A DNA stretch of 64,000 bases from Bugula neritina (GCA_964035545.1 OZ037769.1:9009929-9073928); one strand, 5' to 3'. Numbered from the stretch's first letter, positions 33,606 to 57,806 are shown. Made by a program: numbers and translations. Notes: generated by a model not told the origin, from the letters alone.

Positions 33606-34504
33606 ATGGCAGAAGACGGCGCGGAGCTACCCATTCCGCTGAATGAGGGTGAGGAAGATAATGTTGATATACCTGTGGAACCAGTAGTGTTAGAAGAAGT
33701 GAGAATTCCTAGAGAGCCTGGTGAAGGCAGATACCGGCTGAAGGCGCCCACCTTCACAGGTAGTTGCACGGTGGCCACCAAGGGTGGCGTTGCTCAAACT
33801 CAGGATGGCGCTGACGGACAAGGCTAAGCCATATGGAGCGGGACCTGACATAGACGGGATCTTTGCTTCTCTGTGGGCCCATTTTGGTATCTCCCCCATA
33901 GATGCGCGGGCCCGCCTACAAAGGCTGCGGCGTGATCCTCACACGTCGCTACAGGAGCACGCTGCCACGGTGTACCCGCTGGCGCAGATCACGTTCCGCG
34001 ATCTGCCTCAAGTACACCGTGAGAGGTATACTTATGATGCCTTCGTACAGTCCATCAACGACTTGGGGCTCCACCATCAGTTCCAAGCGAGGGGAGTCAC
34101 CACGGTCGAGGATGCACTTGCGGTGGGAGAAGCCTACCTCATGGCGACTCATATGCACCGCAATCGCGTGGTCTCCCGCCAGGTGGCCACGGAGCACACT
34201 ACTGCTCATACTGAACCAAATGGGGAACCCTCCGCGGTGGCTAATGTGAACCAGATGTCACTAGCATCGAAAGTCGCACAAATGACTGACATGCTAGATA
34301 AACTGGTCGCCACATTAGCTCCCCCAAGCCAGGTAGATACCGCCGTGAGCCTTGCAGGCCGCAGGTACAATCACCAGGCATGGGGCATAACTTCTGCTGG
34401 GGATGCGGAAGGCCAGGACATTTTCAAAAGAACTGCCCTCAACTCCAACAAGGGTTAAACTACCACGGCCCGCAGATGTTCCCACCTCCTGCGGGCCGCC
34501 GGTA
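33606..34504 (+). pseudogene. gag: Gypsy gag, frameshifted
   Basis: KAPTFTG start, capsid-like RLQRLRRDPHTSLQEHA and CCHC knuckle CWGCGRPGHFQKNC (34395-34436) lie in different frames. A G-TTA-AAC -1 slippery site at 34454-34460 leads into the pol frame. Confidence 0.75.
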
Positions 34505-36688
34505 AACCACCCAGGGAGGACCGCGAGTCTGCCGCCCCGCTGGGCGCCGCGCGGAGATGCTGTGAAGTGGCGACCCCCACGGCAAGTAGGCTACTCAAGC
34601 CACTCGCCACCTGGGTCCTCTATGCCACTCCAACACGGATCCGGCAGACGGTTGATCTCAGAGCCTGTGAGGGAAACGGTACAGGCGCCGCAAGGCGTAC
34701 CGCCCCAACCTCAGCAGCTGGTCAATAGTCGTCGCCAACCGTGGACCCCTCGACCCACAGCGAGGGAGGTGCAACCACGGCACACACAGCTGCAGCCGCA
34801 CGGAAGTAGCTACTTCCTGCCAGGAAAGCTAGCTGGCAAGCCTGCCAACTTCCTTCTGGACTCGGGCTGCACCACCAACCTCCTTAGCCGTCAATTCTTT
34901 GACACCCTCAGCGCTAAGGTCAAGGACGGGTTGGCACGGTATGAGGGGGATCATGGCACCCTGGCAGACGGGTCGTGCATTCCCTTCTACGGCATTATTG
35001 AGCTGACTGGTTACATCCGTAACCAGGCCATCCAAGAGACGTTTATCGTCGGACAGCTCAACGAGGATGCTATCCTCGGGATGCCATTCTTACAACGACA
35101 CGGATGTCGCATCGATTTCAGTAAATCTGCGATGATCATGGGCGATAGGGAGCTCACTTGTGTCGATAAGTTTGGTCGTCCTCTAGCGGGAGGAGTGCAG
35201 GTAGTACGGAGCTGTACGATACCAGGCCACTCCCGGGCTACCGTCCGCTGCAAAGTAGACGGTGGCCAAACCTCTAGGTTGGGAGTTGTCAAAAGCACGC
35301 ACTCAAGAATCCAACTTGCCCATAGCTTTAGCTGGCTTACGGGACAAGGAGAGATCTCAGTGCAGTGCGTCAACCCCTCCTCAGAGACGGTAGATCTACC
35401 ACCCAGGTCCATGCTGGGCCGCTTCCATCCTGTCCAGGAGGAAGCCATTGGGCTGTCGTTGGGAGCTACGACGGAAGGTCCTCAGCAGAGCCCGTCTCCA
35501 GGGCGGAGGACCGTCCCAACCCACGCCTCCCATATTCCAGGGACGCGTGGCGACACAGGCAACAGAAAGCGCCAGGTTATGGCTATGTTGCCACGCAGGT
35601 ACAGTGGAGCGCCCCGCAACACAGACCACGACGCCCGCCTGAATAGAGTAAGCCGTCGTGAGGTACCACGGGCGGCGGAGACCGCCCCTACTCATCAGCC
35701 CACGAGGAGGTTGGGCTCGAAGGAGAGGAGCAGAGTTCCCCCACGGAACTCGGGCCAACTCCAACAGAGGGCTGACACGCCCCCAAGGGCCGTCCAGAGC
35801 CTCCACGCCAAACCTGTATGGGCTGGTAACGTTAGGGAGCTGCCAAAACTCCAGGAAAGCCTTCCTGGGGTGGTAGCCGACGTGTACCGAGCGAAACAGG
35901 AAGGGCGACGACTCAGTGGTAGACAACGGCGACAGGGATGCGCCGAGCTACGGCTGTACTGTCAACGTTGGAACTCCCTGCGGGTCGGGCCAGATGGTCT
36001 GCTGACCATGACTTTGGCCGCCAACAGCAGACAACCAGCCAGGAAGAGGATCGTCTGCCCAGCTGCCATCCGCCGGGAGTTGATACAGGACACCCACGAG
36101 CAGACTCATGGAGGAATCCAGGGGGTGGTCACCAAGCTACAACTCCGGTGGTACTGGCCCAACGTGGAGCGGGACATCCGGCGCAGAGTGAGACGGTGCG
36201 AAGTCTTCCAGACCAACCAGCATAGCCGTCTCCCTGGTGAAGCGGGGCGGCAGACGCATTGTGCGAGAAGGTCTTGGCAAGCGGAGACTGTCGTCCTGGC
36301 CGGAAACACCCCCATGACACCTCAGGAAGACTTGGCGAGGCGAAAAAGGCCACTTCCGTCCTTGAAAGTGTGCCCACCGCCCCCAACGTCAAGCCTGCCA
36401 TCACCACCACTTCCGGAACCGAAAACGGGCCCGAAAGTGCAAAAACCCCCCGTGGGAGGGGCTCTGTACGGAGATACCAACGTAGGAACAACCGTCACAA
36501 ACAGGCTGGAAAAATCACCCGTGAGACATAACAATCCACGGGTGAGCACACCGCCTCCCACAGTGACGACGCCTCCAGGACCACACACTAGGCAACCCCC
36601 AGCGTGTCTCGGAGACTTCGTGCGTGACCGCGTTACAAGCGGCAGTTATGAAGGTCTAGTGAGGTCTCGCATGGGAAAAAATATATAA
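34403..36688 (+). CDS. pol: Truncated pol ORF: aspartic protease plus integrase H2C2 zinc-binding region
   Basis: LLDSGCTTN and AILGMPFL (retropepsin); HEQTHGG...WYWPNVERDIRRRVRRC (IN zinc finger, last Cys lost); no YxDD or DDE core. Confidence 0.8.
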   Translation: MRKARTFSKELPSTPTRVKLPRPADVPTSCGPPVNHPGRTASLPPRWAPRGDAVKWRPPRQVGYSSHSPPGSSMPLQHGSGRRLISEPVRETVQAPQGVPPQPQQLVNSRRQPWTPRPTAREVQPRHTQLQPHGSSYFLPGKLAGKPANFLLDSGCTTNLLSRQFFDTLSAKVKDGLARYEGDHGTLADGSCIPFYGIIELTGYIRNQAIQETFIVGQLNEDAILGMPFLQRHGCRIDFSKSAMIMGDRELTCVDKFGRPLAGGVQVVRSCTIPGHSRATVRCKVDGGQTSRLGVVKSTHSRIQLAHSFSWLTGQGEISVQCVNPSSETVDLPPRSMLGRFHPVQEEAIGLSLGATTEGPQQSPSPGRRTVPTHASHIPGTRGDTGNRKRQVMAMLPRRYSGAPRNTDHDARLNRVSRREVPRAAETAPTHQPTRRLGSKERSRVPPRNSGQLQQRADTPPRAVQSLHAKPVWAGNVRELPKLQESLPGVVADVYRAKQEGRRLSGRQRRQGCAELRLYCQRWNSLRVGPDGLLTMTLAANSRQPARKRIVCPAAIRRELIQDTHEQTHGGIQGVVTKLQLRWYWPNVERDIRRRVRRCEVFQTNQHSRLPGEAGRQTHCARRSWQAETVVLAGNTPMTPQEDLARRKRPLPSLKVCPPPPTSSLPSPPLPEPKTGPKVQKPPVGGALYGDTNVGTTVTNRLEKSPVRHNNPRVSTPPPTVTTPPGPHTRQPPACLGDFVRDRVTSGSYEGLVRSRMGKNI

Positions 36689-37742: not shown

Positions 37743-38381
37743 TGTTATAACGGGAACTTGTGGTATCCCGCTACAACTTACTGTACAGCTGTTACTAATA
37801 TGGCTAAGCCTTAGTGATTTACTATAACAGTATTATATGCATATACTTTATGGTAATTACCTTGTAGATTGTTGGTGACTCCTCTCGTTCCTGGTACGTC
37901 TACCTGAAGCTGGGTCTTACAGAGGAGTGACTTCAGATAGCTGTTGGGTGTAGCAAGATACTTCTTGCCGGTTAGCTCCACGTCAGCTGCTTCAGGATAG
38001 GTTGAAGTATTACAAGGGTGGCTGTAATACTTAGGTTTCCTGCCGGTTGGTCCACGTCAGCTGCTTCAGGATAGGCTACTGCGTTTACAAGGGTGGCTGC
38101 ATTTCCATATAAGGATAGAGCCAAGAAGCTGCAGGATCAGGGTGTTTGACGTATAGGAACTGACTTCAAAGCGAAAATGTAATTATAATTGTAACGAAAT
38201 TAGTACATGTTACAGACAGTAGGAAACAGATGGGCTATTGTGATGGCATTAGTTCTCTCTAATCCGTATAACAATGAAAAGTTAATATCAATGTGGGGTT
38301 TAGCTGGGCGTTAGGAAATGAGAATGTAGAATGACTCAGTGGGAAATGAATAAACCTAAAGTCCATAATTCCACTACAACA
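37743..38381 (-). repeat. 3' LTR of copy A
   Basis: Matches 44489-45127. Confidence 0.95.
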
Positions 38382-39593
38382 TTTCTCCCGACGAAAAAGA
38401 AAGCATAGCTCCTGCTATGTGTCTGTAGTACTTACAATGTAGTTCGAAATTATGATAAGGTTCTACTTACGAAATTGGGGTGTGGAGGTGAGTCAGTAAG
38501 TGATTCGTCTGAGTAAGTTGGTATTAATCAGAGCGTTCTACTTATTACTTACTAGGACTATTACTAACTAGGATGAGGAAATGGTATGAATGTTAAATTG
38601 CTCCGAATAGTTGTTGCGGCAGATATAATTATTATTAATAAAGTTCGAGTGGCTAGAATGCGGGGTTGTGTCATTGTGTGATTACCGGTAAGTTGGCGCG
38701 ATCCTCAACTATAACTCTACGTACAAGCCACGCTACTCTGTTGACACCACTTTAACTCAATATTTCCATAACCTCAGTTTTCGATATCAGTATGTCTTCC
38801 AGTACGGTAAGTTGGATAATACTAATTAATTCTACGTTTTTATCATTGTGTGGATTCAGTTAGTATATCTGTGATGTGAATATGTACGTAGCTTCAGTGG
38901 TAGTACTAGTAGTAGGCGTAGTATTTCGTTGTAATCAACTTCAAGTTTTTTAAGTTTTACTTCAAACCTATCAAATTAACTTCAGTAATTTAAAGTTCTT
39001 AGTCTAGATGTGACGATGTAACCCAAATTAAGTGTAATTTTCTCGTTCGATTTTTTGAGATATCATTCAAAAGTGATAAATTCAATAAAGTGATAAACTG
39101 TCAGTCCAGTGTCGTTTGACTATAGGTATTAGTTTAGAGTAAGACTAAAGTGTGTGTTTGCTGACCGAATTACCCACTTACAACAGTTATAGTGCTGCTA
39201 CTAGTTGTGGTGTCAATACTTATAGATACTATGTCAATATGTCTGGTCAGTAGTTGAGTAGTATTGGCATTATAAAATTTTAATGATAAGAGTAAAGTTG
39301 TACTTGGTAACAATAGTCATTGGACTTAATGGTGGGTGTTGTCAATTAGTAAACATGTTGCTATTGAATTGTCTAGCCGTTTTTGTAGTTACTTATACTG
39401 GCATAAATCCATCTTTATCTGGTTAATGTTAAAATAAGTAAATAATAATGAAAAAAAAATAATAATAAAAAAAACTTTCACTAGTAGGAGTACTAATTGT
39501 GGGTATTTCGGTCTCAGTGTTTTGTTTATGGTTATATATAATTGATCTAGTGGACCACTGGTATCCACTGCTAGCTGTTAAGCTGCTCACCCA

Positions 39594-40542
39594 ATGAAAA
39601 GAAAAGGGAATGGCTCCTGCCATTCGTTATTCTATTTATTCCTGAAGGGGTTAGTAAGCATTGGGGTGGATTTGTTAGTATCAGCAGACTGTTATATGTT
39701 AGTATCTAACTAGGGGGGGGGGGGGTTGATATGTGCATCCGCTAGGCTATCGCTTATAATGACTTGAATGGATCCTTGCCCTTCAGATCTGCCCAATGCA
39801 CTGCAACTGTTGGAGAGGCAGGGTGTTGGAGTGCTTTAGCAGTACCTCCACGCTTCACAGCACGGTGGCGGAGTTACAACAAACCACGACTGATCTACCC
39901 GTCACGTGGGGTTAGTAATTGGACTTATCGTCTAGCTCAAAGCAGTAGCAGTATAGGGTCGGTCATCGTAGCCATATCAATCCAATTGCCTTTCTGAGTA
40001 AGCATGCCTAGTTTATATGCCACTTTATGCTACAGGGTCTAATGTAACTGAACTCAATTTAACTGAGTTGTTCTCAGCTCAGGAGGACCAAGATGGGGTC
40101 CTCATAATAAGTATTATAGGGCTAGGCACGCTGTTGCTAATGGCAGTGCTCAGCATGTTTGCTTGTCGCTATGGCGCCCGTAGATACATAGAATATAGAA
40201 CCACCCCACAAAGCTAACATTACTAACGTCCCTATAATATACGTATAAATATATATATTTTTGTTTTTGTTTTTTTTTTTTCATTTACTTCATTTTCATT
40301 CACTACTTATATGTATATATTATATGTAAATATGTTTTTGTCATTGTATATCTATATACCAGTTAATAATATGTTAATAATAAATCTAACTACCATTTAG
40401 CTCACATAATCATGTGTTTGTTTTATATTCTCTTTTAGGATACACTGGCCTAGTGGCCGGAATAGTATTAGGGGCCTTGGCCCTAGCCTTAATAGTTTAT
40501 ATATTCTGCTGTTGTAGGCCCGCTTGCAGGGCGAGAGACTGA
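39594..40542 (+). CDS. Antisense spliced small membrane-protein gene in copy A: exons 39594-39653, 39787-39910, then 40036-40217 or 40439-40542
   Basis: GT-AG junctions are in phase: MKRKGNGSCHSLFYLFLKGL|ICPMHCNCWRGRVLECFSST...VTW|GSNVTELNLT...TM...PQS* or |GYTGLVAGIVLGALALALIVYIFCCCRP... Differences from copy B are mainly synonymous. Confidence 0.6.
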
Positions 40543-40852
40543 GTAGTTAGTTTTGTGTTCGTTTTTCTTTTTCTTTTAATAAAGGTAAAATAGTGTAAAT
40601 CTAATCAGCTACCAATTGTATTCGTTTATTTCAATTTGCACTAGTCTTGTTAATGTAATCAACTTGTAAATAGAGGCTGTAGAGTGCGATTAGGATTAGA
40701 GTTGAGCCTTACTAAAACGATGGAATACTAGATAATCAAAATATAGTAGTAAATATGATATGCACTTTAAAAAAAAACAAGCCCAACTCGAACAGTCCGT
40801 CACGTTGAGTGTTTAGTCTTTTATCATGCAACGGTATTATGGTAAGTCTAGT

Positions 40853-43387
40853 CTATAGTCTGTAAGTGAATTGCGCCTCCCTCTTTTGCTTTGGTCTGCG
40901 CCTTAGACCGTATCGTTTATTGTTGCGAGTTGGTGGTGGTGGTGGCTTTATTCTTTCAGCTTCCTCAGTATTGTTATTCTGAGGCTCTTGGATACTAGTT
41001 CCTTCTCGGTTACCATTACTATGTGCAATGTCTGTGTCGGTTCCATTATGGTGTGCATGTTCATCATTATGTGCCTCAATTCCTGTTGTAGGTTGACGGT
41101 CAGTCTCTTGGCAGTCAGTTTCTCGGCAGTCTTCTTCACTAGACGGTCTGTCAGAGTGAAAATTGTCCGATTCTGGAGCTGAAGTTTCAACCTCCTCAGA
41201 ACCTGAGTCTTGGGCCGCAGGTGAGTCTAGCTCAATTGATAGTTCAGATGTGGGTCCTCTAACTATGCTGCACTGATTCTTCGAGAAGAATTGCTTCTTG
41301 CAGCAGTGCTTGTACACTGCTTCAACCTTGTTGTGTGTAGTGAAGACACCATTTCCACCCTTAAGCTCACCCGCGTCACAGTGTTTAGAGGTAACCATGT
41401 CGATGCACTCTCCCCGCGTGATATGCCGGTTCTCTATGTGAGCATTACGGACTTTCACATTGGTGAAGAGAGACATTAACGTGGTGACCACCGACTTGAA
41501 CTTCTTGCATTGGTATGCTGGTGACTCCCATTCTATTGTGTTGGGTTTGTATACCATGATTTTTGTCTGTTGGGGCTGTCGCGAGGGGTCAGTCTTGTCA
41601 TGTCCGGGGCAGGTGTAGTTAGTGTTCAGTCGGAACAAGTGGGGTTGGTCAGTATGGTGTGAGCCGCATACCATGGGGTTTTTTGCTTCTACCGGGGTCG
41701 CTCCACAGCCAAGGAAACAGCTTAGCAAGCATAGCATTGCTAGTTGTACCGCATCCATGACTGAGAGTTTTCTGCCACCTCTTCTACTTTTGGCCTTCGG
41801 TCCTTTTGCCTTGGGAGTTAGTTCTACGGCGTTGACGTGTTCCTGGCCTGGATCTTGATTTAGGAACTGGAATGCAAACTCGTCAGGACCGAGGTCGCTG
41901 ACGACGTTTACATTAGAGCATTTGCTCCCATAATGCCGGTTCCCGCAAGACTTGCAGGGCCAAGGATTTTGTCCACGCCCATTGCCGTAGTTCTGACCTG
42001 TGTGATTGTTATTGTGTCTGTGTGAAGATTGGTGGTTGTATGACCCTCTTTGTTGGTTAAAAGGGGTTTGGTGTTGGTTAAAAGGAGCCTGATGTTGGTT
42101 GTGGGTGCCTTGGTTATAGTAGCGCTGTGGTTGATTGTAACCACCTCTTCTGTTGCCTCGGTTACCACCGCGTCCTCTACCACGGTATCGGTTGGACTGG
42201 TAGTTATTGCTCCTGTAACTTTTCTCCTCTTGCTCCTTGGATCTTATTGACTGAGCTTTTATAAGCTCAGCCAGACCGTCTATCTGCTTTTGCAGAGGAG
42301 CTATGAGTTCTGCTTGGCTCCGGTTATAATTAATTTCCGCGACTATTTCTGACTCTATGAAATTTATTTTTTGAGTCTTGAGTGCCCCATCTACCGCTTC
42401 CAGCTTCTTTGCTTCCTCCAAGGTCTGCTGCAGGGTGAGTTCACCCTTCAGAAGGATATCCCTCTGATGGGCTTCGTTCAGCCCTGCAATGAATACGTTC
42501 GTCAACACCTTGTCTCTATATTCCTCCGGCATATCCAGGAATGCCGACTGGCCTTGAGAGACTACTTCTGTGAAGAATTCTCCAACAGTTTTCTTCCCCT
42601 GTGACAGTTTCCAGAGGCTCTTCCCTAGCAGTGGGTTGCTTCTCTGGAACATTGTAGCCAGTTTGGGTTTAAGTGCAGTGTAGCTGGTGGCACAGCCGGG
42701 CGCCTGTTTCACTACCTTTCGGTACGTTTGCCAAGCTGAGCCAGTGAGCTTGGCAGGTATAGCGAGGGCTAGTTGTTCGTTGTCATATCGATGGGGGGCC
42801 ATTAGAACTTCCCATCTCTCTATAAAATTCTCCCAGGACTCAGTAGAGTCACCGGAGAAGGATGGCAGGCTATCCAAGTTGGGTGCCACACTTGCTATGA
42901 TCTGCGTTTGGAATGGATTGGCGGTTGGTATGTTGGTAGAGGGTATGCCGCGTGGAGGTCGTGTTTGGGTTGAATAAGTTTGTAGTGTTGGGGTCATATG
43001 AGCTTGAGTTGACAAGCCATAGTTTGTCATTGTAAGGCTGGGTGTAGGGCCTGTTGAAGTGTTGCTGTTGATACAGTCACGTCGTAGCTCTGGAGATAAT
43101 GAGTTCCAAAACTTCACTATCTCTTCCTTCGAGGTGGGTGTGTAAATTGTGTTTTTGGGTCTTGTGCCCGTATCGCTCGATGTCGTGGTCGAGCTGGTTA
43201 TAGTGGTTGTCGCGGTTAGTGGAGTGTCAGTATTGTCAGATAGTGTAGTAGGGGTTGAGGTGGTTATGGGAGGTTGTGTGGTAGTGTCGGAGCTCAATGT
43301 GGTAGGGGCAGACGAGGTTGCTTCTCCTGGGGTAGCCATTTGTCTAGTTCTAGTTACACTCCGTGTCACCCGCCTGTTACTACTCAT
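40853..43387 (-). CDS. gag: Intact 844-aa Gag - signal - partial Env fused in frame to the C-terminal tail of Pol
   Basis: Capsid-like LPSFSGDSTESWENFIERW and LSQGKKTVGEFF, knuckle CKSCGNRHYGSKC, hydrophobic AVQLAMLCLLSCFLGCGA, Cys-rich Env N-terminus, then GPTSELS matching the end of copy B pol. Confidence 0.9.
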   Translation of the reverse strand: MSSNRRVTRSVTRTRQMATPGEATSSAPTTLSSDTTTQPPITTSTPTTLSDNTDTPLTATTTITSSTTTSSDTGTRPKNTIYTPTSKEEIVKFWNSLSPELRRDCINSNTSTGPTPSLTMTNYGLSTQAHMTPTLQTYSTQTRPPRGIPSTNIPTANPFQTQIIASVAPNLDSLPSFSGDSTESWENFIERWEVLMAPHRYDNEQLALAIPAKLTGSAWQTYRKVVKQAPGCATSYTALKPKLATMFQRSNPLLGKSLWKLSQGKKTVGEFFTEVVSQGQSAFLDMPEEYRDKVLTNVFIAGLNEAHQRDILLKGELTLQQTLEEAKKLEAVDGALKTQKINFIESEIVAEINYNRSQAELIAPLQKQIDGLAELIKAQSIRSKEQEEKSYRSNNYQSNRYRGRGRGGNRGNRRGGYNQPQRYYNQGTHNQHQAPFNQHQTPFNQQRGSYNHQSSHRHNNNHTGQNYGNGRGQNPWPCKSCGNRHYGSKCSNVNVVSDLGPDEFAFQFLNQDPGQEHVNAVELTPKAKGPKAKSRRGGRKLSVMDAVQLAMLCLLSCFLGCGATPVEAKNPMVCGSHHTDQPHLFRLNTNYTCPGHDKTDPSRQPQQTKIMVYKPNTIEWESPAYQCKKFKSVVTTLMSLFTNVKVRNAHIENRHITRGECIDMVTSKHCDAGELKGGNGVFTTHNKVEAVYKHCCKKQFFSKNQCSIVRGPTSELSIELDSPAAQDSGSEEVETSAPESDNFHSDRPSSEEDCRETDCQETDRQPTTGIEAHNDEHAHHNGTDTDIAHSNGNREGTSIQEPQNNNTEEAERIKPPPPPTRNNKRYGLRRRPKQKREAQFTYRL

Positions 43388-44488
43388 ACAATGTGTGTGT
43401 TTGTTTATTATTGGCTTATTTTGTTTTCTGTAAATTATTAGGGCAGGTATATTTAGTTAGTTTGTTTTCTAATCACCGTTTTAATTAGTACTGTATTTAG
43501 TTATTTGTGTTTAATAATAAGTTGGAACAGTGGAACAGTAGAAGGATGTAAATAGTACCACTATGACTATCCTTTTGGTAGTTTGTAACTACCTTGTGAA
43601 TGTGGAAATTAGGTTAATTATGTCGGTTCTTGTTTCCTTTCTTAATTAGGCAATTATTCTTAAATTAGATTAGATATAAGATAAATCTCCTGTTTTTTAT
43701 TTTTTATGAAATTAATTATTACAATTTGAACGTTAGGTATATGGTTGTAGCAGCTATCGAAGTTTCTTGATACTTATTTCTAGTTGGATAATTCAGTTTA
43801 GGTTTTATAACTTAGCTTATATATCTAAGGTTGTAAATTATTATACTTGAACTTAATTTTTAAATTAGCGGTACCTCCTATCTAGATATTGGACGTGTGT
43901 TAGCCTTGGGGTAGTTCTATATTGTGTTTATAAACTTACCCTGACTGGTTACGTTGTGGGTTGGGGTTAGCACTCACCAGTCTCCGTGGGGTGCGATTGT
44001 TCCCTTGACGAGTTTGTGATGATTTATAATTAATTGTTTAAAGATACTGATTTCTGTAACAGCAAAAGTAGTGTTAATAACACAGCAACAAGTAATATTG
44101 AAGCTTATAAAAAGGGAGTTGAGTCTTGGAATTCAAAATTGACAGTACTTAATATATATTGTTTGGTATTAGATACCGGGACTCTAGGTCAACCACTAAA
44201 ATTTTTAATTGTATTTCTATAGCGCTTGTTTGAGTGTATTGCTTTAATTTATGTGTCGTGGGACCAGTACTGTATTTGATATGTTCAATTATTAATTAGG
44301 CCTATTATAGACTCTAAACTCTACCTTTAGTTAAAAATAGCTTGTCCTCAAGCTTGTGTGAGCCCCTGATACAATAGCTCGGCAGTAATAGCTACCTAAG
44401 CCAAGTATAACTGAGTGGTTAATCTCAGTGATCAGCAAATAAATGCTTTGCAATACGAGAGGGGGACCGAAATGGTACCTCCACCAAA

Positions 44489-45127
44489 TGTTATAACGCG
44501 AACTTGTGGTATCCCGCTACAACTTACTGTACAGCTGTTACTAATATGGCTAAGCCTTAGTGATTTACTATAACAGTATTATATGCATATACTTTATGGT
44601 AATTACCTTGTAGATTGTTGGTGACTCCTCTCGTTCCTGGTACGTCTACCTGAAGCTGGGTCTTACAGAGGAGTGACTTCAGATAGCTGTTGGGTGTAGC
44701 AAGATACTTCTTGCCGGTTAGCTCCACGTCAGCTGCTTCAGGATAGGTTGAAGTATTACAAGGGTGGCTGTAATACTTAGGTTTCCTGCCGGTTGGTCCA
44801 CGTCAGCTGCTTCAGGATAGGCTACTGCGTTTACAAGGGTGGCTGCATTTCCATATAAGGATAGAGCCAAGAAGCTGCAGGATCAGGGTGTTTGACGTAT
44901 AGGAACTGACTTCAAAGCGAAAATGTAATTATAATTGTAACGAAATTAGTACATGTTACAGACAGTAGGAAACAGATGGGCTATTGTGATGGCATTAGTT
45001 CTCTCTAATCCGTATAACAATGAAAAGTTAATATCAATGTGGGGTTTAGCTGGGCGTTAGGAAATGAGAATGTAGAATGACTCAGTGGGAAATGAATAAA
45101 CCTAAAGTCCATAATTCCACTACAACA
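44489..45127 (-). repeat. 5' LTR of copy A
   Basis: Followed on the minus strand by the PBS TGGTGGAGGTACC. Confidence 0.95.
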
Positions 45128-45516: not shown

Positions 45517-46147
45517 TGTTGTAGTGGAATTATGGACTTTAGACTTGTTTAATTCTCATTCTACATTCTCATTTCCTAACGCCCAGCTACACTCCACATT
45601 AAGATTAACTTTCCATTGTTATACAGATTAGAGAGAATTAATGTCATCACACTAGCCAAGCTGTCTCCTACTGTCTGTAACATGTACTAATTTCGTTACA
45701 ATTATAATTACATTTTCGCTTTGAAGTCAGTTCCTATACGTCAAACACCCTGATCCTGCAGCTTCGTGGCTTTATCCTTATATGGAGATGCAGCCACCCT
45801 TGTAAAGGCAGTAACCTATCCTGAGATAGCTGACGTGGACCAACCGGCAGGAAGCCTAAGTATTACAGCCACTCTTGTAATACTGCAACCTATCCTGAAG
45901 CAGCTGACGTGGAGCTAACCGGCAAGAAGTATCTTGCTATACCCAACAGCTATCTGAAGTCACTTCTCTGTAAGACCCAGCTTCAGGTAGACGTACCAGG
46001 AACGAGAGGAGTCATCAACAATCTACAATGTAATTACCATAAAGTATATGCATATAATACTGTTATAGTAAATCACTAAGGCTTAGCCATATTAGTAACA
46101 GCTGTACAGTAAGTTGTAGCGGGATACCACAAGTTCCCGTTATAACA
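45517..46147 (+). repeat. 5' LTR of copy B
   Basis: TGTTGTAG...TTATAACA. Confidence 0.95.
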
Positions 46148-46149
46148 TT

Positions 46150-46162
46150 TGGTGGAGGTACC
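46150..46162 (+). promoter_or_regulatory. Primer-binding site, tRNA-Ala-like
   Basis: TGGTGGAGGTACC, 2 nt after the LTR; resembles the complement of the tRNA-Ala 3' end (..CUCCACCA). Confidence 0.6.
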
Positions 46163-47224
46163 ATTTCGGTCTCCCCTCTCGTATTGCAAAGCATTTATTT
46201 GCTGATCACTGAGGTTAACCACTCAGTTATACTTGGCTTAGGTAACTATTACTGCCGAGCTATTGTATCAGGGGCTCACACAAGCTTGAGGACAAGCTAT
46301 TTTTTTAACTAAAGGTGGAGTTTAGAGTCCATAATAGGCCTAAATAATAATTGAACATATCAAATACAGTACTGGTCCCACGACACATAAATTAAGGCAA
46401 TACACTTGAATAAGCGCTATAGAAATACAATTAAAAATTCTAGTGGTTGACCTGGAGTCCCGGTATCTAATACCAAACAATATATATTAAGTACTGTCAA
46501 TTTTGAATTCCAAGACTCAACTCCCTTTCTATAAGCTTCAATATTACTTGTTGCTGTGTTATTAACACTACTTTTGCTGTTACAGAAATCAGTACCTTTA
46601 AACAATTAATTATAAATCATCACAAACTCGGCAAAGGGAACAATCGCACCCCACGGAGACTGGTGAGTGCTAACCTCAACCCACAACATAACCAGTCAGG
46701 GTAAGTTTATAAACACAATATAGAACTACCCCAAGGCTAACATACGTCCAATATCTAGATAGGAGGTACCATTAATTTAAAAATTAAGTTCAAGTATAAT
46801 AACTATAATAATTTACAACCTCAGATATATAAGCTAAGTTATAAAACCTAAACTGAATTATCCAGTTAGAAATAAATATTGAGAAACTTTAATAGCCGCT
46901 GCAACCATATACCTAACATCCAAATTGTAATAATTAATTTCATAAAAAATAAAAACAGGAGATTTATCTTATATTTATTTTAATTAAAGAATAATTGCCT
47001 AATTAAGAAAGGAAACAAGAACCAACATAATTAATCTAATTTCCACATTCACAAGGTAGTTACAAACTACCAAAAAGATAGTCATAGTGGTATAATTTAC
47101 ATCCTTCTACTGAAACAGAAGGCTCACTCTGTTCCAACTTATTATTAAACTAACTGAGTACACCTGCCATAATAATTTATAAAAAACAAAATAAGCCAAT
47201 AATAAACAAACACACACACATTGT

Positions 47225-48934
47225 ATGAGTAGTAACAGGCGAGTGACACGGAGCGTAACTAGACAAATGGCTACCTCAGGAGAAGCAACCTCATCTGCCC
47301 CTACCGCATTGAGCTCCTCTTCCGACATTACCACACAACCTCCCATAACCACCTCAACTTCAACTACACTACCTGACTATACTGACACCCCACTAACCGC
47401 GACAACCACTATAACCAACTCGACCACGACATCAAGCGATACGGGCACAAGACCCTAAAACACAATATACACACCCACCTCGAAGGAAGAGATAGTGAAG
47501 TTCTGGAACTCACTATCTCCAGAGCTACGACGGGACTGTATAAACAGCAATAGTCCAACAGGCCCTACACCCAGCCTTACGATGACCAACTATGGCTTGT
47601 CAACTCAAGCTCATATAACCCCAACACTACAAGCTTATTCAACCCAACCACGACCTCCACGCGGCATACCCTCTACCAACATAGGCCTACCAACCGCCAA
47701 TCCGTTCCAAACGCAGATAATGGCAAGCGTGGCACCCAACTTGGATAGCCTGCCATCCTTCTCCGGCGACTCTACTGAGTCCTGGGAGAATTTTATAGAG
47801 AGATGGGAAGTCCTGATGGCTCCCCATCGATATGACAACGAACAACTAGCTCTCGTCATACCTGCCAAGCTCACTGGCTCAGCTTGGCAAACGTACCGAA
47901 AGGTAGTGAAACAGGCGCCCGGCTGTGCCACCAGCTACACTGCACTTAAACCCAAACTGGCTACGATGTTCCAGAGAAGCAACCCACTGCTAGGGAAGAG
48001 CCTCTGGAAACTGTCACAGGGGAAGAAAACTGTTGGATAATTCTTCACAGAAGTAGTCTCTCAAGGCCAGTCGGCATTCCTGGATATGCCGGAGGAATAT
48101 AGAGACAAGGTGTTGACGAACGTATTCATTGCAGGGCTGAACGAAGCCCATCAGAGGGATATCCTTCTGAAGGGTGAACTCACCCTGCAGCAGACCTTGG
48201 AGGAAGCAAAGAAGCTGAAAGCGGTAGATGGGGCACTCAAGACTCAAAAAATAAATTTCATAGAGTCAGAAATAGTCGCGGAAATTAATTACACCCGGAG
48301 CCAAGCAGAACTCATAGCTCCTCTGCAAAAGCAGATAGACGGTCTGGCTGAGCTTATAAAAGCTCAGTCAATAAGATCCAAGGAGCAAGATGAGAAAAGT
48401 TATCGGAGCAATAACTACCAGCCCAACCGATACCGTGGTAGAGGACGCGGTGGTAACCAAGGCAACAGAAGAGGTGGTTACAACCAACCACAGCGCTACT
48501 ATAACCAAGGCACCCACAACCAACATCAGGCCCCTTTTAACCAACACCAAGCCCCTTTTAACCAACAAAGAGGGTCATATAACCACCAATCTTCGCACAG
48601 ACACAATAACAATCGCACAGGTCAGAACTACAGCAATGGGCGTGGACAAAATCCTTGGCCCTGCAAGTCTTGCGGGAACCGGCATTATGGGAGCAAATGC
48701 TCTAATGTAAACGTCGTCAGCGACCTCGGTCCTGAAGAGTTTGCATTCCAGTTCCTAAATCAAGATCCAGGCCAGGAACACGTCAATGCCGTAGAACTAA
48801 CTCCCAAAGCAAAAGGACCGAAAGCCAAAAGTAGAAGAGGTGGCAAAAAACTCTCAGTCATGGATGCAGTACAACTGGCAATGCTATGCTTGCTAAGCTG
48901 TTTCCTTGGCTGTGGAGCGACCCCGGTAGAAGCT
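47225..48934 (+). pseudogene. gag: gag of copy B plus internal signal peptide
   Basis: Colinear with the copy A ORF, but with nonsense changes AAA>TAA (47456) and GAA>TAA (48038). Confidence 0.9.
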
Positions 48935-50864
48935 AAAAACCCCATGGTATGCGGCTCACACCATACTGACCAACCCCACTTGTTCCGACTGAACACTAAC
49001 TACACCTGCCCCGGACATGACAAGACTGACCCCACGCGACAGCCCCAACAGACAAAAATCATGGTATACAAACCCAACACAATAGAATGGGAGTCACCAG
49101 CATACCAATGCAAGAAGTTCAAATCGGTAGTCACCACGTTAGTGTCTCTTCACCGACGTGAAAGTCCGTAATGCTCACATAGAGAACCGGCCTATCACGC
49201 GGGGAGAGTGCATCGACATGGTTGCCTCTAAACACTGTGACGCGGGTGAGCTTAAGGGCGGAGATGGTGTCTTCACTACGCGCAACAAGGTTGAAGCAGT
49301 GTACAAGCACTGCTGCAAGAAGCAATTCTTCTCGAAGAATCAGTGCAGCATAGTTAGAGCGACCGTGTACAAAAGGCATGAGGATAAGGAATTCGAGTCC
49401 ACTGCAGGTGACGTTCGTCATTGCAAATATGACGAAGGAAGCTGCAAATTGGACGACGGTTCCATCCTCATATGGGAACCACGGAAGCAGACCCACTGCA
49501 AACATACGGAGTGGTACATGGAGGAAGGCACCTTCTTCGACAACCACTTCGTCAGTAGTGACCACTCGATGGCCTTGACGTTCGCCCGATATGGAATCTA
49601 CTCGACGAAGGACTGCCACGGCAAGAACACGTCGATGTCGGACCAAGGGCTGATGTTAAGGTTCATGACGCCACTCCACAATGTTACCATACTTAACAAC
49701 GTCACAGCCACATATCAAGTTGGAGGCTCATATGCGTCTACAATAAACGCAGTAGCGCAAGCTCTAGCGTTAGAACAAATCACCACCGCACAAAAACTAT
49801 TCTGGACCTCATACTACTATTCGTGTCACAACACTGCCCAAACCATTAACCTCATCACTCTCTTACTTGAACGACATCCCACAACAGCAGCAAGACACAT
49901 GTTGCAATTGAGTAACGTGGTCGCGAAAGCCGGCCCTGGCTACTTAGAGGTGTACCCCTGCACCGAGTTGGAAAGAACTTCTTACCAACTACTGAAAATG
50001 AAACACAACAACTGCACCAACTACTTGCCGATACAAATATCTATAGCTGGTCTTGAATCCATTGGATATCTGGACCCTGTAAATAACATAATACACCCTG
50101 ACTCATACAATGTAGACTGCACCCACAGAGAGGAAGTTCCTGTGAAATTGGACGGTATTATTTACCTATATTCATGGAACGAATCTCTAAAACTGGCCCC
50201 AAACACTACAATTCTATCCTTGCCAAACATCAAATTAGGAGCTACTCCCTTGGAATCACACGAAAATATCTTCAGTCGCGCACATAGACTAAATTGGGCT
50301 GATTTTAGCCATCACCACTCCTTAAATGCTATCCTTTCAACACTCAACCGCCAAACACAGGTGTTGAAAGCCGTTGGAGTTGTTAGCTTTCCACACTATA
50401 CACTAGACAAAAATAGAATAGAGACCCAAGAAGGCATACTGGGTAATTCATATTTCTCCTTCTTGTTCGGAGGTCATGTAGCCTCAGTATATGAATTGTG
50501 GACCATGCTAGCAAATCTCATCGTGGCGATTGCTTCAATCGTCTTTATTTCCAAGAAATTATACTATCATCTATGCATCAAATACATCTGCAAAAGGCGT
50601 GGCAGAATCGTAGTAGATGCTGTGGACATTGTAGAACAAAGTACAACACACCAACCAACAGCAGAGGAAACTACGACAGCCACGGAATTACATTCTTTAA
50701 TAACCCCCACTCATTCCCAAGTAGAAAGTACAACCCCCATTTCTACTATTAACTCAAACACCCCATCAGCAAGGTTATACCCTGCGCTTGAGAATATAAC
50801 CGAAACAGATGACATCGCTTGGCCTTCTTGGACCAAGCAAGCCAGGCAAGAGTCTTCACAATGA
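48935..50864 (+). CDS. env: Envelope glycoprotein, class III (gB/chuvirus-G-like) candidate; 2-nt deletion near 49150 in this copy
   Basis: Cys-rich ectodomain (AYQC, ECIDMV..KHC, GDVRHCKYDEGSCKLDDGSILIWEP, YPC, NCTNYLP), several N-x-S/T sequons, TM LWTMLANLIVAIASIVFI, and an S/T-rich cytoplasmic tail. Confidence 0.8.
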
Positions 50865-53800
50865 CTAGCCACGCCGTCGCCGAAAACCGCTGCCCAAGTA
50901 TTGGGAATTCTGGATAGTCGCACCTGTCAGACAACAACAATAAGGGCAGAGGTAAACGGCAAGAGGTGTACCGCGTTAGCAGACGCTGGCGCATCCATAA
51001 GTATTGTGAACTCAAATATCGCTGCCAACTTAGGGTTGGCACTACAACCACACAAGATTAAGGCAAGGGGTGTTACCAACAGCTCCTTAGACATTCTCGG
51101 GAAATCGGACGTAGTGATTACAATAGGAAAAGACACAAGAGTAGAACATTCACTCTTTGTGGCCAATGCAATTACTCACGACGTCATTTTAGGGTCTGAT
51201 TTTCTAGCAAAACTGGGAGAAGTCACCTACGATTTCCAGAGGTGCACATTGGGTTTCAATCAACGGAAGATACCCATGGGACCGGAAGCCATAAACAACG
51301 TAGCACGGACGGCATATAGCGTGGACATACCGCCTCTGTCAGAGATGGCAGTGGTGGCCACCATCACAAGTCCATCCTTGGACGGTGCCACCTGCTATTT
51401 TGAAGGCAACAAATTACCACAAAAGGTAATGGTAGGAAAATCAATTGACAGGGTAGTCAAGAGACGCATTTGGGTGCCAATAATGAATTGCACTAAGACT
51501 CCCATAACTATTCCAGAAGACACGATCGTGGGTAACGTGGAACAGGTGGAAGAAAATCTGGAACTACTCAAGGTCAACTCCCCAAAAGAAAAATCGAAGA
51601 CTCTATCCAAACCTAGCTCAAGTCTGAAACTGGAGGACACCACATTGGATCTACACCAGTTTCAGAAGCTACGAGGGCTGGTGGACGAGTTTCAAGATAT
51701 CATTTGAGAAGGAGTCACTGACCTTGGACGTACTGATATAGTACAGCCCGTGGTGGAAACAACCCCCAGTACGCACCCGATACGAAGCCGACCATACGTC
51801 ATTCCAGTAGGTATTAGGTCGGAAGTAAAAGCACAACTGGATGAAATGCAAGAAGCCGGGCTGATCACACCCAGCGCTGGCAATTGGACCTCACCAGTTG
51901 TGTTGGTCAAGAAGAAAGATGGGAGGTGGAGATTCTGCGTAGATTACCGGAAACTGAACTCCGTGACGATTAAGCAGTCTATGGCAATATCGAGCATAGA
52001 GAACGCTGTTGAAATCATGCACAACAAGAAGTACTTCAGCAGCATCGATCTATGTTCCGGTTTCTTCCAAGTAGCACTGCACGAGTCGTCTCAGGAGAAA
52101 TCAGGGTTCATAACGCCATTCGGCTGTTATGAATTTAAGGTAATGCCACAAGGAATGTCGGGCTCACCTGCGACTTTCACTCGCCTCGCATTAGCCATCA
52201 TGGCCGACCTGATAAGTGAGGGCAGCAGTTGCGTCTACCTAGACGACTGGCTGATGACATCAACCACGTTTGAGACCCATTTGCAACTACTCAGGACAGT
52301 GTTTTCCAGGCTCCGTTACGCTGGACTAAAGTTCAGACTGAGTAAAAGCCAGCTATGTCAGAAGGAGATCCTATACCTGGGACACATATTGTCGAGCAAA
52401 GGTATAGCAGTTGCACCTCACAATACCGAAAAGATCAAAAATTTCCCCACTCCGCGGAACAAAACGGAAGTCAAGAGACTTCTTGGTCTTTTCGGGTATT
52501 ACAGGTCATTCATAAAAAACTTCGCGCGGATCGCGACTCCTATTATTAAACTCACGTTCAAGGACGCCGAGTTTGTCTGGTCGGTAGAATGTCAGAGGGC
52601 TTCGGAAGAGCTGAGAACCAGAATCACCACAGCACCAATTCTGGTTTTTCCTGACATTAAAAGCCCATTTATCTTAACGACTGGTGCATCGGCAACTGCG
52701 ATTGGGGCTGTCCTGTCTCAGCTCCGAGACAATAAGGAACACCCCATATCGTTCTACTCTCGTACGCTAACAGCCGCCGAGAGGAAATGGGACGCCTGCC
52801 AGCAGGAGCTCTTCGCTATAGTGTGCGCTGTCAAACACTACAGGCAGTATCTGATGAATGTCAAATTCAGATTGATCACAGATAACGCTGCCTGTACGTA
52901 CATGATGAAGAAACCAGACTTGTCTCCCCGCCTTGCCAGATGGGCAATACAACTGGCCGACTATGACTTTGAGGTCATACACCAGGCGGGCAAACAGAAC
53001 GTGGTGGCCGACGCTCTGTCACGAGCAGAGATTCTTGCTGTAGAATCCTGCCCTATCGACGAACAGGCAAGAAATCAGCAGAAGAGAGACTACTTCTTAG
53101 GGCCAGTACTTCTGTACCTGGAGAAGGGGAAGTTTCCGGAAGACGCCTCCAAGGCGAAAGCGAATCAGATAGTTGCGGACAGCAAACAATTCAAGATAAT
53201 TGACGGGCTCGTGTACCGTAACTATCAAGACAAAGCACTTCTGGCTATCCCCTCAAGTCAGCGTCACCTCCTGATGTACGCTATGCATGACAGCATATCG
53301 GCTATGCATCCAGGAATGACTAAGACTATGCTCCGGTTGAAACAACACTACTGGTTCCCGAAGATGCACCAGGCAGTCGAAAAATATATCTCAGAATGCC
53401 ACTCATGTCAGCAGAGGAAGAACCCGAAAGTTCAGACTCGGGTCCCTCTGGCAACAAGGATAGCGACAGAGCCATTCCACACGCTATCCATGGACTTCCT
53501 CGGTCCGTTCGTGCAGAGTGCTGATGGAATGAAATACGTTCTGGTATTTACCGACCATTTTACAAAATGGTGCGAAATGATCTGCACTGCTGACCAATCA
53601 GCAGCAACAGTCGCTCGCGTCTATGTTGAGCAGATCTTTTGCAAATTCGGGGCCGCATCAGTACTACTCTCGGACAGGGCCAAGTCTTTCATGGGTTCAG
53701 TTATGGTTGAAGTGAACAAACTTCTCAAAACTGACTCCAAATTTAGTGTACCGTACTCGCCAGCATCCAACGGACAAGTGGAGATATACAACAAAACCAT

Positions 53801-54728
53801 CGCCAATATGTTGTCCCACTTCGTCGACCCAGGCACCCATCGCGATTGGGACAGATACATCCCGTTCTGTCAACTGGCGCACAATTCATCAGTACACACC
53901 ACCACCACCACGACACCAAGTATGCTCTTATTCTGCAGAGAAATGCGAATGCCATACGAGCTGACCAAACCTCGCCCACCTGTTGTGGAAGACGACGTCC
54001 CGTACGTTACGAAGTTGCTCAACAGAATGCAAGAGGTTTGGGACACAGCCAGACAGTTGATAGGAAAGGGCAAAGAAAGGCAGAAGAGATACGACAAGAA
54101 AGCACACCCCACAGATCTCAGAGTGGGAGATATAGTGTTGTACTATAATAAAAGGGCGTACAAAAACAAGACTGCTAAATTAATAAAGCGATGGCAGGGC
54201 ATGTACATAATAAAACATATAACCGATACAACTGCTGCCATACAACTATTCAACGAGCCAGATCAGGCACCATTTAGGGTGCATTTGAACCTAATGAAAA
54301 GGTACAAGGGACCTCTAGTTAGAGGACCCACATCTGAACTATCAATTGAGCTAGAGTCACCTGCGACCCAAGGCTCAGGTTCTGAGGAGGTTGAAACTTC
54401 AGCTCCAGAAACGGACAATTTTTACTCTGACAGACTGTCTAGTGAAGAAGACTGCCGAGAAACTGACTGCCAAGAGACTGACTGTCAACCTACAACAGAA
54501 ATTGAGGCACATAATGATGAACATGCACGCCATAATGAAACCGACACAGACATTGTATATAGTAATGATAACCAAGAAGGAACTAGTATCCAAGAGCCTC
54601 AGAACAACAATACTGAGGAAGCTGAAAGAATAAAGCCACCACCACCACCAACTCGCAACAATAAACGATACGGTCTAAGGCGCAGACCAAAGCAAAAGAG
54701 GGAGGCGCAATTCACTTACAGACTATAG
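50865..54728 (+). CDS. pol: Pol (PR-RT-RNase H-IN), in frame with env; one internal TGA at 51705-51707
   Basis: ALADAGAS/VILGSDFL (PR); WRFCVDYRKLN, MPQG, YLDD (RT); TGAS..ELFA..TDN (RH, first Asp is Gly); H-H-CHSC, SMDFLGP, LSDRA, GQVE (IN). Ty3/Gypsy domain order. Confidence 0.95.
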
Positions 54729-55029
54729 ACTAGACTTACCATAATACCGTTGCATGATAAAAGACTGAACACTCACTGTGACGGACTATTCTAGTTAGGC
54801 TTGCTTTTTTTTAAAGTATATATCATATTTACTACTATATTTTGATTATCTAGTATTTCATCGATTTAGTAAGGCTCAACTCTAATCCTAATTGCACTCT
54901 ACAGCCTCTATTTACCAGTTGATCACATTAGCAAGACTAGTTCAACTTGAAATAAACGAATACAATTGGTGGCTGATTAGATTTACACTATTTTACCTTT
55001 ATTTAAAAAAAAAAAAACACAAAACAAAC

Positions 55030-55970
55030 AAACTACTGAGTTGTCTCTCGCCCTACGAGCGGGCCTACAACAGCAAAATATATAAGCTAATAAGGCTAGG
55101 GCCAAGGCCCCTAATACTATCCCAGCCACTAGGCCAGTGTATCCTAAAAAAAAATAAAAAACAAACACATGATTATGTGAGCTAAGTGGTAGTTAGATTT
55201 ATTGTTAACATATTATTAGCTGGTGTATAGATATACAATGACAAAAACATATTTACATATAATATATACATATAAGTAGTGAATAAAAATAAAGTAAATG
55301 AAAAAAATATATATATATATATACATATATTATAAGGACGTTAGTAATGTTAGCTTTGTGGGGTGGTTCTATATTCTATATATCGACGAGCGCCATAGCG
55401 ACAAGCAAACATGCTGAGCACTGCCATTAGCAACAGCGCGCCTAGCCCTATAATACTTATTATGAGGACCCTATCTTGGTCCTCCTGAGCTGAGAACAAC
55501 TCAGTTAAATTGAGTTCAGTAACGTTAGACCCTGTAGCATAAAGTGGCATATAAACTAGGCATGCTTACTCAGAAAGGCAATTTGATTGATATGGCTACG
55601 ATGACCGACCCTATACTGCTACTGCTTTGAGCTAGACGATAAGTCCAATTACTAACCCCACGTGACGGGTAGATCGGTTGTAGTTTCTTGTAATTCCACA
55701 GCCGTACTGTGAAGCGTGGAGGTACTACTAAAGCACTCCAACACCCTCCCTCTCCAACAGTTGCAGTGCATTGGGCAGATCTGAAGGGCAAGGATCCATT
55801 CAAGTCATTATAAGCAATAGCCTAGTGAATGCATATATCAACCCCCCCCCCTAGTTAGTTACTAACATATAACAGTCTGCTGATACTAACAAATCTACCC
55901 CAATGCTTACTAACCCCTTGATGAGTAAATAGAATAACGAATGGCAGGAGCCATTCCCTTTTCTTTTCAT
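55030..55970 (-). CDS. Antisense spliced small membrane-protein gene in copy B: exons 55970-55911, 55780-55657, then 55531-55350 or about 55143-55030
   Basis: Same exon lengths (60, 124 and 182 nt) and splice sites as in copy A. Confidence 0.6.
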
Positions 55971-57169
55971 TGGGTGAACAGCTTAACAGCTAGCAGTGGG
56001 TACCAGTGGTCCATTAGATCAATTATATATAACCATAAACAAAACACTGAGACCAAAATACCTACAATTAGCACTCCTACTAGTTAACGTTTTTTTATTT
56101 TTTCACTATTATTTACTTATTTCAACACTAACCAGATAAAGATAGATCTATGCGTGTATAAGTAACTACAAAAACGGCTAGACAATTCATTAGCAACACG
56201 TTTACCAATTGACAACAGCCATCATTAAGTCCAATGATTATTATTACCAAGTACAACTTTACTCTTATCATTAAAATTCTATAACGCCAATACTACTCAA
56301 CCAGACATATTGACATAGTATCTATTAGTATTGACACAACTACTACTAGTAGCAGCACTATAACTGTTGTAAGTGGGTAATTCGGTCAGCAAACACACAC
56401 TTTAGTCTTACTTTAAACTAATACCTATAGTCACACGATACTGTACTGACAGTTAGTGAGTTTATCACTTTATTGAATTTATCACTTTTGAATGATATCT
56501 CAAAAATCGAACGAGAAATTACACTTAATTTGGGTTATATCGTCACATCTAGACTAAGAACTTTAAATTACTGAAGTTAATTCGATAAGTTTGAAGTAAA
56601 ACTTGAAGTCGATCACAACGAAATACTACGCCTACTACTACTATACTACTACAACTACTACTGAAGCTACGTACATATTCACATCACAGATATACCAACT
56701 GAACCCACACAATGATAAAAACGTAGAATTAATTAGTATTATCCAACTTACCGTACTGGAAGACATACTGATACGGAAAACTGAGGTTTATGGAAATATT
56801 GAGTTAAAGTTGTGTCAACAGAGTAGCGTGGCTTGTATGTAGAGTTATAGTAGAGGATCGCGCCAACTTACCGGTAATCACACAACCTCGCATTCTAGCC
56901 ACTCGAACTTTATTAATATTAATTAGATCTGCCGCAACAAATATTCGGAGCAATTTAACATTCATACCATTTCCTCATCCTAGTTAGTAATAGTCCTAGT
57001 AAGTAATAAGTAGAACGCTCTGATTAATACCAACTCACTCAGACGAATCACTTACTGACTCACCTCCATACCCCAATTCCGTAAGTAGAACCTTATCATA
57101 ATCTCGACCTACGTTATAAGTACTTCAGACACATAGCAGGAGCTATGCCTTCTTTTTCGTCGGGAGAAA

Positions 57170-57806
57170 TGTTGTAGTGGAATTATGGACTTTAGGTTTA
57201 TTCAATTCCACTGAGTCATTCTACATTCTCATTTCCTAACGCCCAGCTAAACCCCACATTGATATTAACTTTCCATTGTTATACGGATTAGAGAGAACTA
57301 ATGCCATCACAAAGCCCATCTGTTTCCTACTGTCTGTAACATGTACTAATTTCGTTACAATTGTAATTACATTTTCGCTTTGAAGTCAGTTCCTTTACGT
57401 CAAACACCCTGATCCTGCAGCTTCGTGGCTCTATCCTTATATAGAAATGCAGCCACCCTTGTAAATGCAGTAGCCTATCCTGAAGCAACTGACGTGGACC
57501 AACCGGCAGGAAACCTAAGTATTACAGCCACCCTTGTAATACTTCAACCTATCCTGAAGCAGCTGGCGTGGAGCTAACCGGCAAGAAGTATCTTGCTACA
57601 CCCAACAGCTATCTGATTTCACTTCTCTGTAAGACCCAGCTTCAGGTAGACGTACCCGGAACGAGAGGAGTCATCAACAATCTACAAGGTAATTACCATA
57701 AAGTATATGCATATAATACTGTTATAGTAAATCACTAAGGCTTAGCCATATTAGTAACAGCTGTACAGTAAGTTGTAGCGGGATACCACAAGTTCCCGTT
57801 ATAACA
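57170..57806 (+). repeat. 3' LTR of copy B
   Basis: Preceded by GGGAGAAA; TG...CA ends. Confidence 0.95.

Follow-up and report, generated by a model that had tools for sequence, protein, structure and literature searches.

How does a retroelement that carries its envelope gene between gag and pol produce its enzymes, and on which protein do these enzymes enter a particle? The question is raised by a long terminal repeat (LTR) element at positions 47225–54728 (+) of a 64,000-nucleotide stretch of Bugula neritina DNA (GCA_964035545.1 OZ037769.1:9009929-9073928), which was analyzed as a whole and is referred to here as the window. The element is a member of Ty3/gypsy (Metaviridae), and its Env-coding region ends at a conserved UGA that is followed by pol in the same frame. 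We consider it likely that a minority of ribosomes read through this UGA, so that Gag-Env would predominate and Pol would be produced solely as an addition to the Env tail.

The window contains two copies of the element in a head-to-head arrangement, separated by 390 bp of AT-rich simple repeats. Copy B (45517–57806, +) is decayed and contains the gag-env-pol region, and copy A (37743–45127, −) is a young, internally deleted copy. In copy B, the domains are ordered Gag, Env, protease (PR), reverse transcriptase (RT), RNase H (RH) and integrase (IN). The gag region (47225–48807) encodes a capsid, an RGG-rich region and a Cys/His knuckle-like motif; its match to PF03732 lies below the Pfam cut-off, and in the aligned part it shares 94% identity with copy A's open frame. 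It is followed by an internal signal peptide predicted from hydropathy (48808–48934), which combines a basic patch, a hydrophobic segment and a small-residue region and would be cleaved. The Env ectodomain (48935–50477), a membrane anchor located by hydropathy (50478–50564) and a cytosolic tail (50565–50861) containing the late-domain-like motif LYPAL (50775–50789) complete the predicted glycoprotein. The tail runs into CAA-TGA-CTA (50859–50867), a conserved in-frame stop at the Env/Pol border that is predicted to be a site of programmed readthrough. Downstream, an aspartic protease with a D-A-G-A motif at ∼50982 and a spacer (50865–51704) precede RT, RNase H, integrase and an acidic C-terminal tail (51708–54728). 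A copy-specific stop lies immediately upstream of the RT segment at 51705–51707, where relatives are open.

The initial annotation described this locus as a gag-env-pol polyprotein in a single reading frame. The gene order is borne out by the domain order of copy B together with the Gag-to-Env frame of copy A. In copy A, as had been noted, an open reading frame (ORF) of 867 codons (40853–43456, −) is uninterrupted across Gag, the basic patch and the hydrophobic segment and continues into ∼135 Cys-rich ectodomain residues. Likewise, the copy B ectodomain, transmembrane (TM) segment, tail and PR-RT-RH-IN share one frame from 49143 to 54728, which in-frame stops interrupt; the conserved stop at 50862–50864 had been passed over in the initial annotation. 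The single reading frame did not hold for the whole element: no one open frame spans 47225–54728, and neither of the copies consists of one ORF. Stops at 47456–47458, 48038–48040, 50862–50864 and 51705–51707 and a frameshift within 49143–49171 interrupt copy B. At each of these places other than 50862–50864, copy A or relatives are open. The TGA at 50862–50864, unlike the three other stops and the frameshift, is not decay.

The assignment to Ty3/gypsy is based on paired TG...CA LTRs, a primer-binding-site-like sequence, a purine tract and the Pol order PR-RT-RH-IN. Among solved structures, the RT–RNase H region is nearest to Ty3 RT (E-value of 7e-76; 5e-42 for the next family). The middle domain is a class III fusion protein resembling herpesvirus gB and the nyami- and chuvirus glycoproteins. 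A profile of 83 Env relatives matches gB with an E-value of 2e-16. A structure model built from the same 83 sequences, with a predicted local distance difference test (pLDDT) score of 82.6, matches gB and the nyami- and chuvirus glycoproteins in Foldseek with E-values of 1e-9 to 1e-15, and its Foldseek TM-scores are low (0.2–0.3) despite these good E-values; a model built from five sequences (pLDDT of 38) was discarded. Atlas assigns Env to Monjiviricetes_fusion at 0.95, and PF24664 scores above the cut-off in the relative P0006. The Env pieces of the window alone gave no match to a Pfam fusion protein. The first 490 residues of the frame that begins at 49143 contain six N-glycosylation sequons and 16 cysteines.

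The stop between Env and Pol was compared at the DNA level in ten metagenome loci from four families, with the window as a fifth family. CAA-TGA-C(T/A)A lies directly upstream of the protease frame in all ten related loci and in the window. In nine of the ten loci, Env is open up to the TGA and Pol continues in the same frame without a stop; the remaining locus (L006) has a frameshift in env. Pol downstream of the TGA comprises 1289–1312 codons where it is complete, and its terminal stop is TAA or TAG in all five families. Four of the five families lack an in-frame Met upstream of the protease motif. Five representative sequences contain 1923 stop triplets in any frame, and the context is found at six of them, five of which are the junctions. 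When 63 bases from the five families are stacked without gaps, CAATGAC-A is the sole conserved run, one stray column apart, although CAA accounts for only 116 of 271 Gln codons. Identity among the families is 43–63% in Env and 59–87% in RT. UGA-CUA (type II) and stop-CAR-YYA (the type I 3′ context of tobacco mosaic virus, TMV) are known readthrough contexts (PMC13517186, PMC11166343). Three of the families carry UGA-CUA, and two carry UGA-CAR-YYA. Contigs from four sequencing runs, aligned on 50400–52000, represent many diverged copies; weak support comes from the absence of 50859–50867 from the 40 listed differences (of 434 in total), and from contigs in two runs that match up to 50867 and then diverge. 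Given the conserved leaky context and the open in-frame ORF downstream, the stop after Env is likely a programmed readthrough site. Reassignment of TGA to Trp in the host code was ruled out, as only a single in-frame TGA, located at one place, occurs per family in ∼2,500 codons.

The protein relatives show how the stop is distributed. Nine long relatives were found first: P0003 (2602 residues) is a continuous Gag-Env-Pol protein, seven terminate a short distance past the Env tail and another terminates at the TM segment. A library-wide search with the Env profile gave 742 matches, of which 150 were listed, and 159 Env-matching proteins were examined. Forty-three of these extend into PR or RT, 24 end 40–170 residues past the TM segment and 92 were unclassed. 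After removal of one duplicate fragment, 13 of 23 stop-ended Env proteins terminate in Gln, compared with a background of 5%. The members of a cluster end alike, with all ten listed members at 1341 residues. The possibility that the continuous relatives are gene-calling artefacts produced by reading TGA as Trp was discarded, since Q-W-L/Q between Env and PR occurs in none of 26. An Env tree (58 rows, quick method, midpoint root) contains a group of 15 rows with support of 94 in the SH-like approximate likelihood ratio test (SH-aLRT; 96 for an inner group of 13 rows), which consists of 11 Gln-ended proteins, three other stop-ended proteins and the continuous P0003. Rows outside this group are mostly continuous. 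In the simplest reading of the tree, the ancestor would have been continuous, and the leaky stop would have been gained in the 15-row clade and lost in the P0003 line. A search of viral contigs returned no relatives of the element, and no LTR pair was found in the loci L003, L005 or L006.

By hydropathy, Gag-Env has two membrane segments: the first follows the basic patch where Gag meets Env, and the second closes Env. In copies A and B, no hydropathy peak other than the first lies ahead of Env. An equivalent signal-like segment is present in all ten families displayed, each of which retains the basic n-region. Two membrane crossings would therefore place the Env tail and Pol in the cytosol. 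The polyprotein topology proposed in the initial annotation thus stands, on hydropathy, in its single internal signal-like segment, single TM segment and cytosolic Pol, and falls in that the coding region is not one plain ORF. Its further proposal, that Pol is tethered to the Env tail, follows from this predicted topology and, with a stop between Env and Pol, would apply only to the readthrough fraction.

The tail that precedes the stop is rich in motifs resembling retroviral late domains, of which PPxY, P(T/S)AP and YPXnL are the classes and LYPAL is a late domain of murine leukemia virus (MLV) (PMC8402826). PPxY, P(T/S)AP or YPxL occurs in all 13 anchored Env tails, with 22 motifs in total; in 10,000 shuffles, the mean was 0.8 and no shuffle exceeded 6. 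Two further proteins lack the anchor motif, and inspection by eye located late-domain-like motifs in one and none in the other. In terms of density, 17 such motifs were counted in 777 tail residues versus 6 in 10,728 residues upstream, and none in five Pol frames. The linker between Env and PR in the continuous relatives contains a late-domain-like motif in 10 of 26.

The protease that follows the stop has an atypical active-site motif. D-A-G is present in all six clade families with Pol (the window, L001, L003, L005, L007 and P0003), whereas 45 of 48 protease matches in the wider set have D-T-G or D-S-G. Similar motifs of the type (V/I)-N/A/S-x-(V/I) recur at four places, downstream of the capsid, of the knuckle and of the TM segment and upstream of the signal, and are read as putative, loosely defined protease sites. 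In the relative P0010, a candidate protease-site motif upstream of the internal signal forms several tandem repeats (residues 557–670).

In the proposed expression mechanism, Gag would be synthesized in the cytosol, with the basic and hydrophobic segments serving as an internal signal that is cut by signal peptidase. After this cleavage, Gag would stay anchored in the membrane and Env would be a type I protein. Most ribosomes would stop at the UGA and yield Gag and Env at a 1:1 ratio, and a few percent would read through and append PR-RT-RH-IN. After signal cleavage, Gag would be separate from Env-Pol, and Pol would therefore enter particles on Env and not on Gag. The PPxY, P(T/S)AP and YPxL motifs of the Env tail would recruit the endosomal sorting complexes required for transport (ESCRT) to bring about budding, which is a Gag function in retroviruses. 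Later, cleavage by the protease at (V/I)-N-A-(V/I)-like sites would release Gag from its anchor and detach Pol from the tail. A high Gag:Pol ratio, which a plain Gag-Env-Pol ORF does not provide, would be restored by the leaky stop.

Several observations weigh against this mechanism. P0003 is the closest relative by RT (75%) and yet has no stop at all. Ten of the 23 stop-ended Env proteins, which are known as protein only, lack a terminal Gln, although some of them are probably truncated. L001 and L003 are close kin (87% RT identity), and by this measure the five families represent about four independent lineages. A stable 3′ stem-loop is predicted in only two of the five families (z-scores of −3.5 and −3.1), other sequence windows reach similar values, and no shared RNA structure after the TGA was found across the five families. 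The topology is predicted from hydropathy. YPxL also fits the YxxΦ sorting motif, and the YPxL motifs of the tail could be a sorting signal instead. The protease cleavage step is uncertain, because substitution of T/S with A at the active-site motif inactivates the proteases of human immunodeficiency virus 1 (HIV-1) and PEG10 by disabling dimer formation (PMC7212762); either clustering on Env helps the D-A-G protease to dimerize, or the enzyme works in another mode. Tca2 shows that local context does not necessarily drive readthrough of a UGA that separates two ORFs (PMC2194720).

Alternative explanations were weighed against readthrough onto the Env tail. The one that survives best accepts readthrough but assumes that some chains skip the internal signal, so that a cytosolic full-length Gag-Env-Pol co-assembles through Gag. 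The moderate hydrophobicity of the signal (19-residue means of 1.6–2.0, and below the 1.6 threshold in P0004 and P0005) would allow incomplete translocation. We nevertheless regard this alternative as unlikely; it requires the cytosol to tolerate an unfolded 500-residue Cys-rich domain and its TM segment, and all families displayed retain the basic n-region.

Alternatively, Pol could be expressed from a spliced or subgenomic RNA, through a gag-pol joint or an internal promoter, with the UGA as the plain end of Gag-Env. A YAG within 15 bases past the stop in all five families, the minor promoter of Tca2 at its UGA junction (PMC2194720) and the fact that a spliced Gag-Pol would package Pol in the usual way are in keeping with such an RNA. 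The first YAGs lie, however, in phases 1, 2, 0, 1 and 1 and lack a pyrimidine tract (6–9 of 15 positions), and, of the joints listed for the contigs over 50400–52000, none is splice-like and ends near 50865. Neither RNA would explain the conservation of frame in all five families or the CAA-UGA-C(U/A)A island, and four of the five offer no Met ahead of the protease motif. Expression from a separate RNA thus appears quite improbable. The last alternative follows the initial annotation in taking the active form to be an uninterrupted Gag-Env-Pol ORF, and regards the TGA of copy B as one more decay mutation. The four other breaks of copy B and the continuity of P0003 and many distant relatives (43 of the 159 Env-matching proteins reach PR or RT) might suggest this. 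It is very hard to reconcile with an identical stop and context in all ten loci from four other families, nine of them otherwise unbroken in the available part, with the shared protein ends at 1341 residues in 10 of 10 listed cluster members and with the lack of any change at 50859–50867 among the 40 listed differences (of 434).

Beyond readthrough itself, a broader proposal is that the clade has moved the control and assembly roles of Gag to Env. The leaky UGA would set the Pol dose, Pol would travel as a passenger of the Env tail, late domains in the tail would drive ESCRT-dependent budding, and a protease devoid of the dimer-locking Thr/Ser would become active only when Env trimers cluster its subunits. 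As a combination, this proposal is tentative, and we hold it to be rather doubtful.

The two copies differ in their state of preservation. The copy B LTRs (5′ LTR, 45517–46147, 631 nucleotides with TG...CA ends; 3′ LTR, 57170–57806) are identical at 595 of 630 aligned bases. A primer-binding-site-like sequence that begins with TGG lies right behind the 5′ LTR (46150–46167), and a short purine run is located just upstream of the 3′ LTR. The copy B flanks form no target-site duplication, and its 3′ LTR is nearer to the LTRs of copy A (∼98%) than to its own 5′ LTR (94%); these two features point to copy B as a possible recombinant or assembly chimera. The LTRs of copy A are identical at 638 of 639 positions and are flanked by a 4-bp target-site duplication. 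Most of env and pol is deleted from copy A, and its ORF jumps at a 9-nucleotide microhomology to the last ∼130 residues of Pol. The deletion is in frame, so that the copy encodes Gag, the signal and a short, anchorless piece of Env that has an acidic tail. It may represent a mobilized non-autonomous form. Both copies share a 5′ leader of ∼1.1 kb and an AT-rich stretch of ∼2.4 kb between pol and the 3′ LTR (54729–57169, + in copy B), and neither the leader nor the stretch contains an ORF of more than 100 codons.

The window contains other features as well. An unrelated GC-rich gypsy-like element at 33742–36688 (+) encodes a gag-like ORF, a protease and an integrase zinc finger; its 765-codon frame has no RT or RNase H match, and it is probably internally deleted or non-autonomous. 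Three related ORFs of 189–239 codons (370–1129, 3071–3640 and 6939–7698) encode an acidic protein with no Pfam match, and two of them form a large inverted repeat around the third. An NHL-repeat-like ORF of 305 codons (16249–17166, −), with a weak Pfam match just above the cut-off, is probably a host exon.

The gag-env-pol layout, which the initial annotation had left as possibly uncatalogued, has already been described. Chary and Hayashi (PMC13524379) report GAG-ENV-POL ‘ancient errantiviruses’ with an HSV/gB-type Env (HSV, herpes simplex virus) in Bryozoa, Nematoda and Platyhelminthes, and the element of the window resembles these in gene order, Ty3/gypsy Pol and gB-type Env. A window Env piece matches the bryozoan Cpal_errantivirus_6 at 85 of 175 positions, as counted by eye without gaps from the supplement of that paper. 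From this Env similarity a bryozoan host is likely, and no diagnostic host gene was found in the window. The main text is silent on how Pol is expressed and makes no mention of readthrough, frameshift, polyprotein, late domain, ESCRT or budding; the preprint likewise mentions no readthrough or late domain. Nematode non-canonical endogenous retroviruses (NERVs) with env before pol (Sacco et al. 2022, doi 10.1099/jgv.0.001739) are cited in the same paper. In our analysis, a Meloidogyne hapla protein combines a zinc knuckle, signal, Env, TM segment, PR, RT and IN zinc finger in a single ORF and differs from the window element in having no stop, a D-T-G protease and an RT that is only 36% identical. 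The nematode elements reportedly consist of one continuous gag-env-pro-pol ORF without a stop. In contrast to these NERVs, the element of the window is not one continuous ORF, as an in-frame TGA is present in the window and in 10 of 10 loci.

In-frame leaky stops are familiar from gag-UAG-pol of MLV, pol/env of SIRE1, UGA-CUA of alphaviruses and CAA-UAG-CAA-UUA of TMV. In retroelement and virus readthrough, the leaky stop sets the ratio of structural protein to enzyme, and contexts of types I and II are matched here. Some alphaviruses have a sense codon in place of the UGA, as P0003 is free of a stop. The known sites lie at gag/pol or pol/env, whereas the site in the window lies at env/pol, behind a TM anchor. 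All three motif classes of retroviral late domains, LYPAL included, recur in varying combinations, but those of retroviruses are in Gag and those of the window clade are in the Env cytosolic tail. Readthrough at an env/pol junction, late-domain motifs in an Env tail and a D-A-G protease were unreported in the literature searched, which did not extend to Sacco et al. 2022. We regard the element as a new family whose layout is published but whose probable expression strategy at the env/pol junction is apparently undescribed. For annotation, a stop after Env in these elements is no sign of decay. The production and packaging of enzymes in gag-env-pol elements, which the text of PMC13524379 leaves unaddressed, receive a testable answer from this family. 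If the proposed mechanism is true, it would constitute a second route to an enveloped reverse-transcribing particle, in which the enzymes and the budding signals are carried on the glycoprotein and not on Gag.

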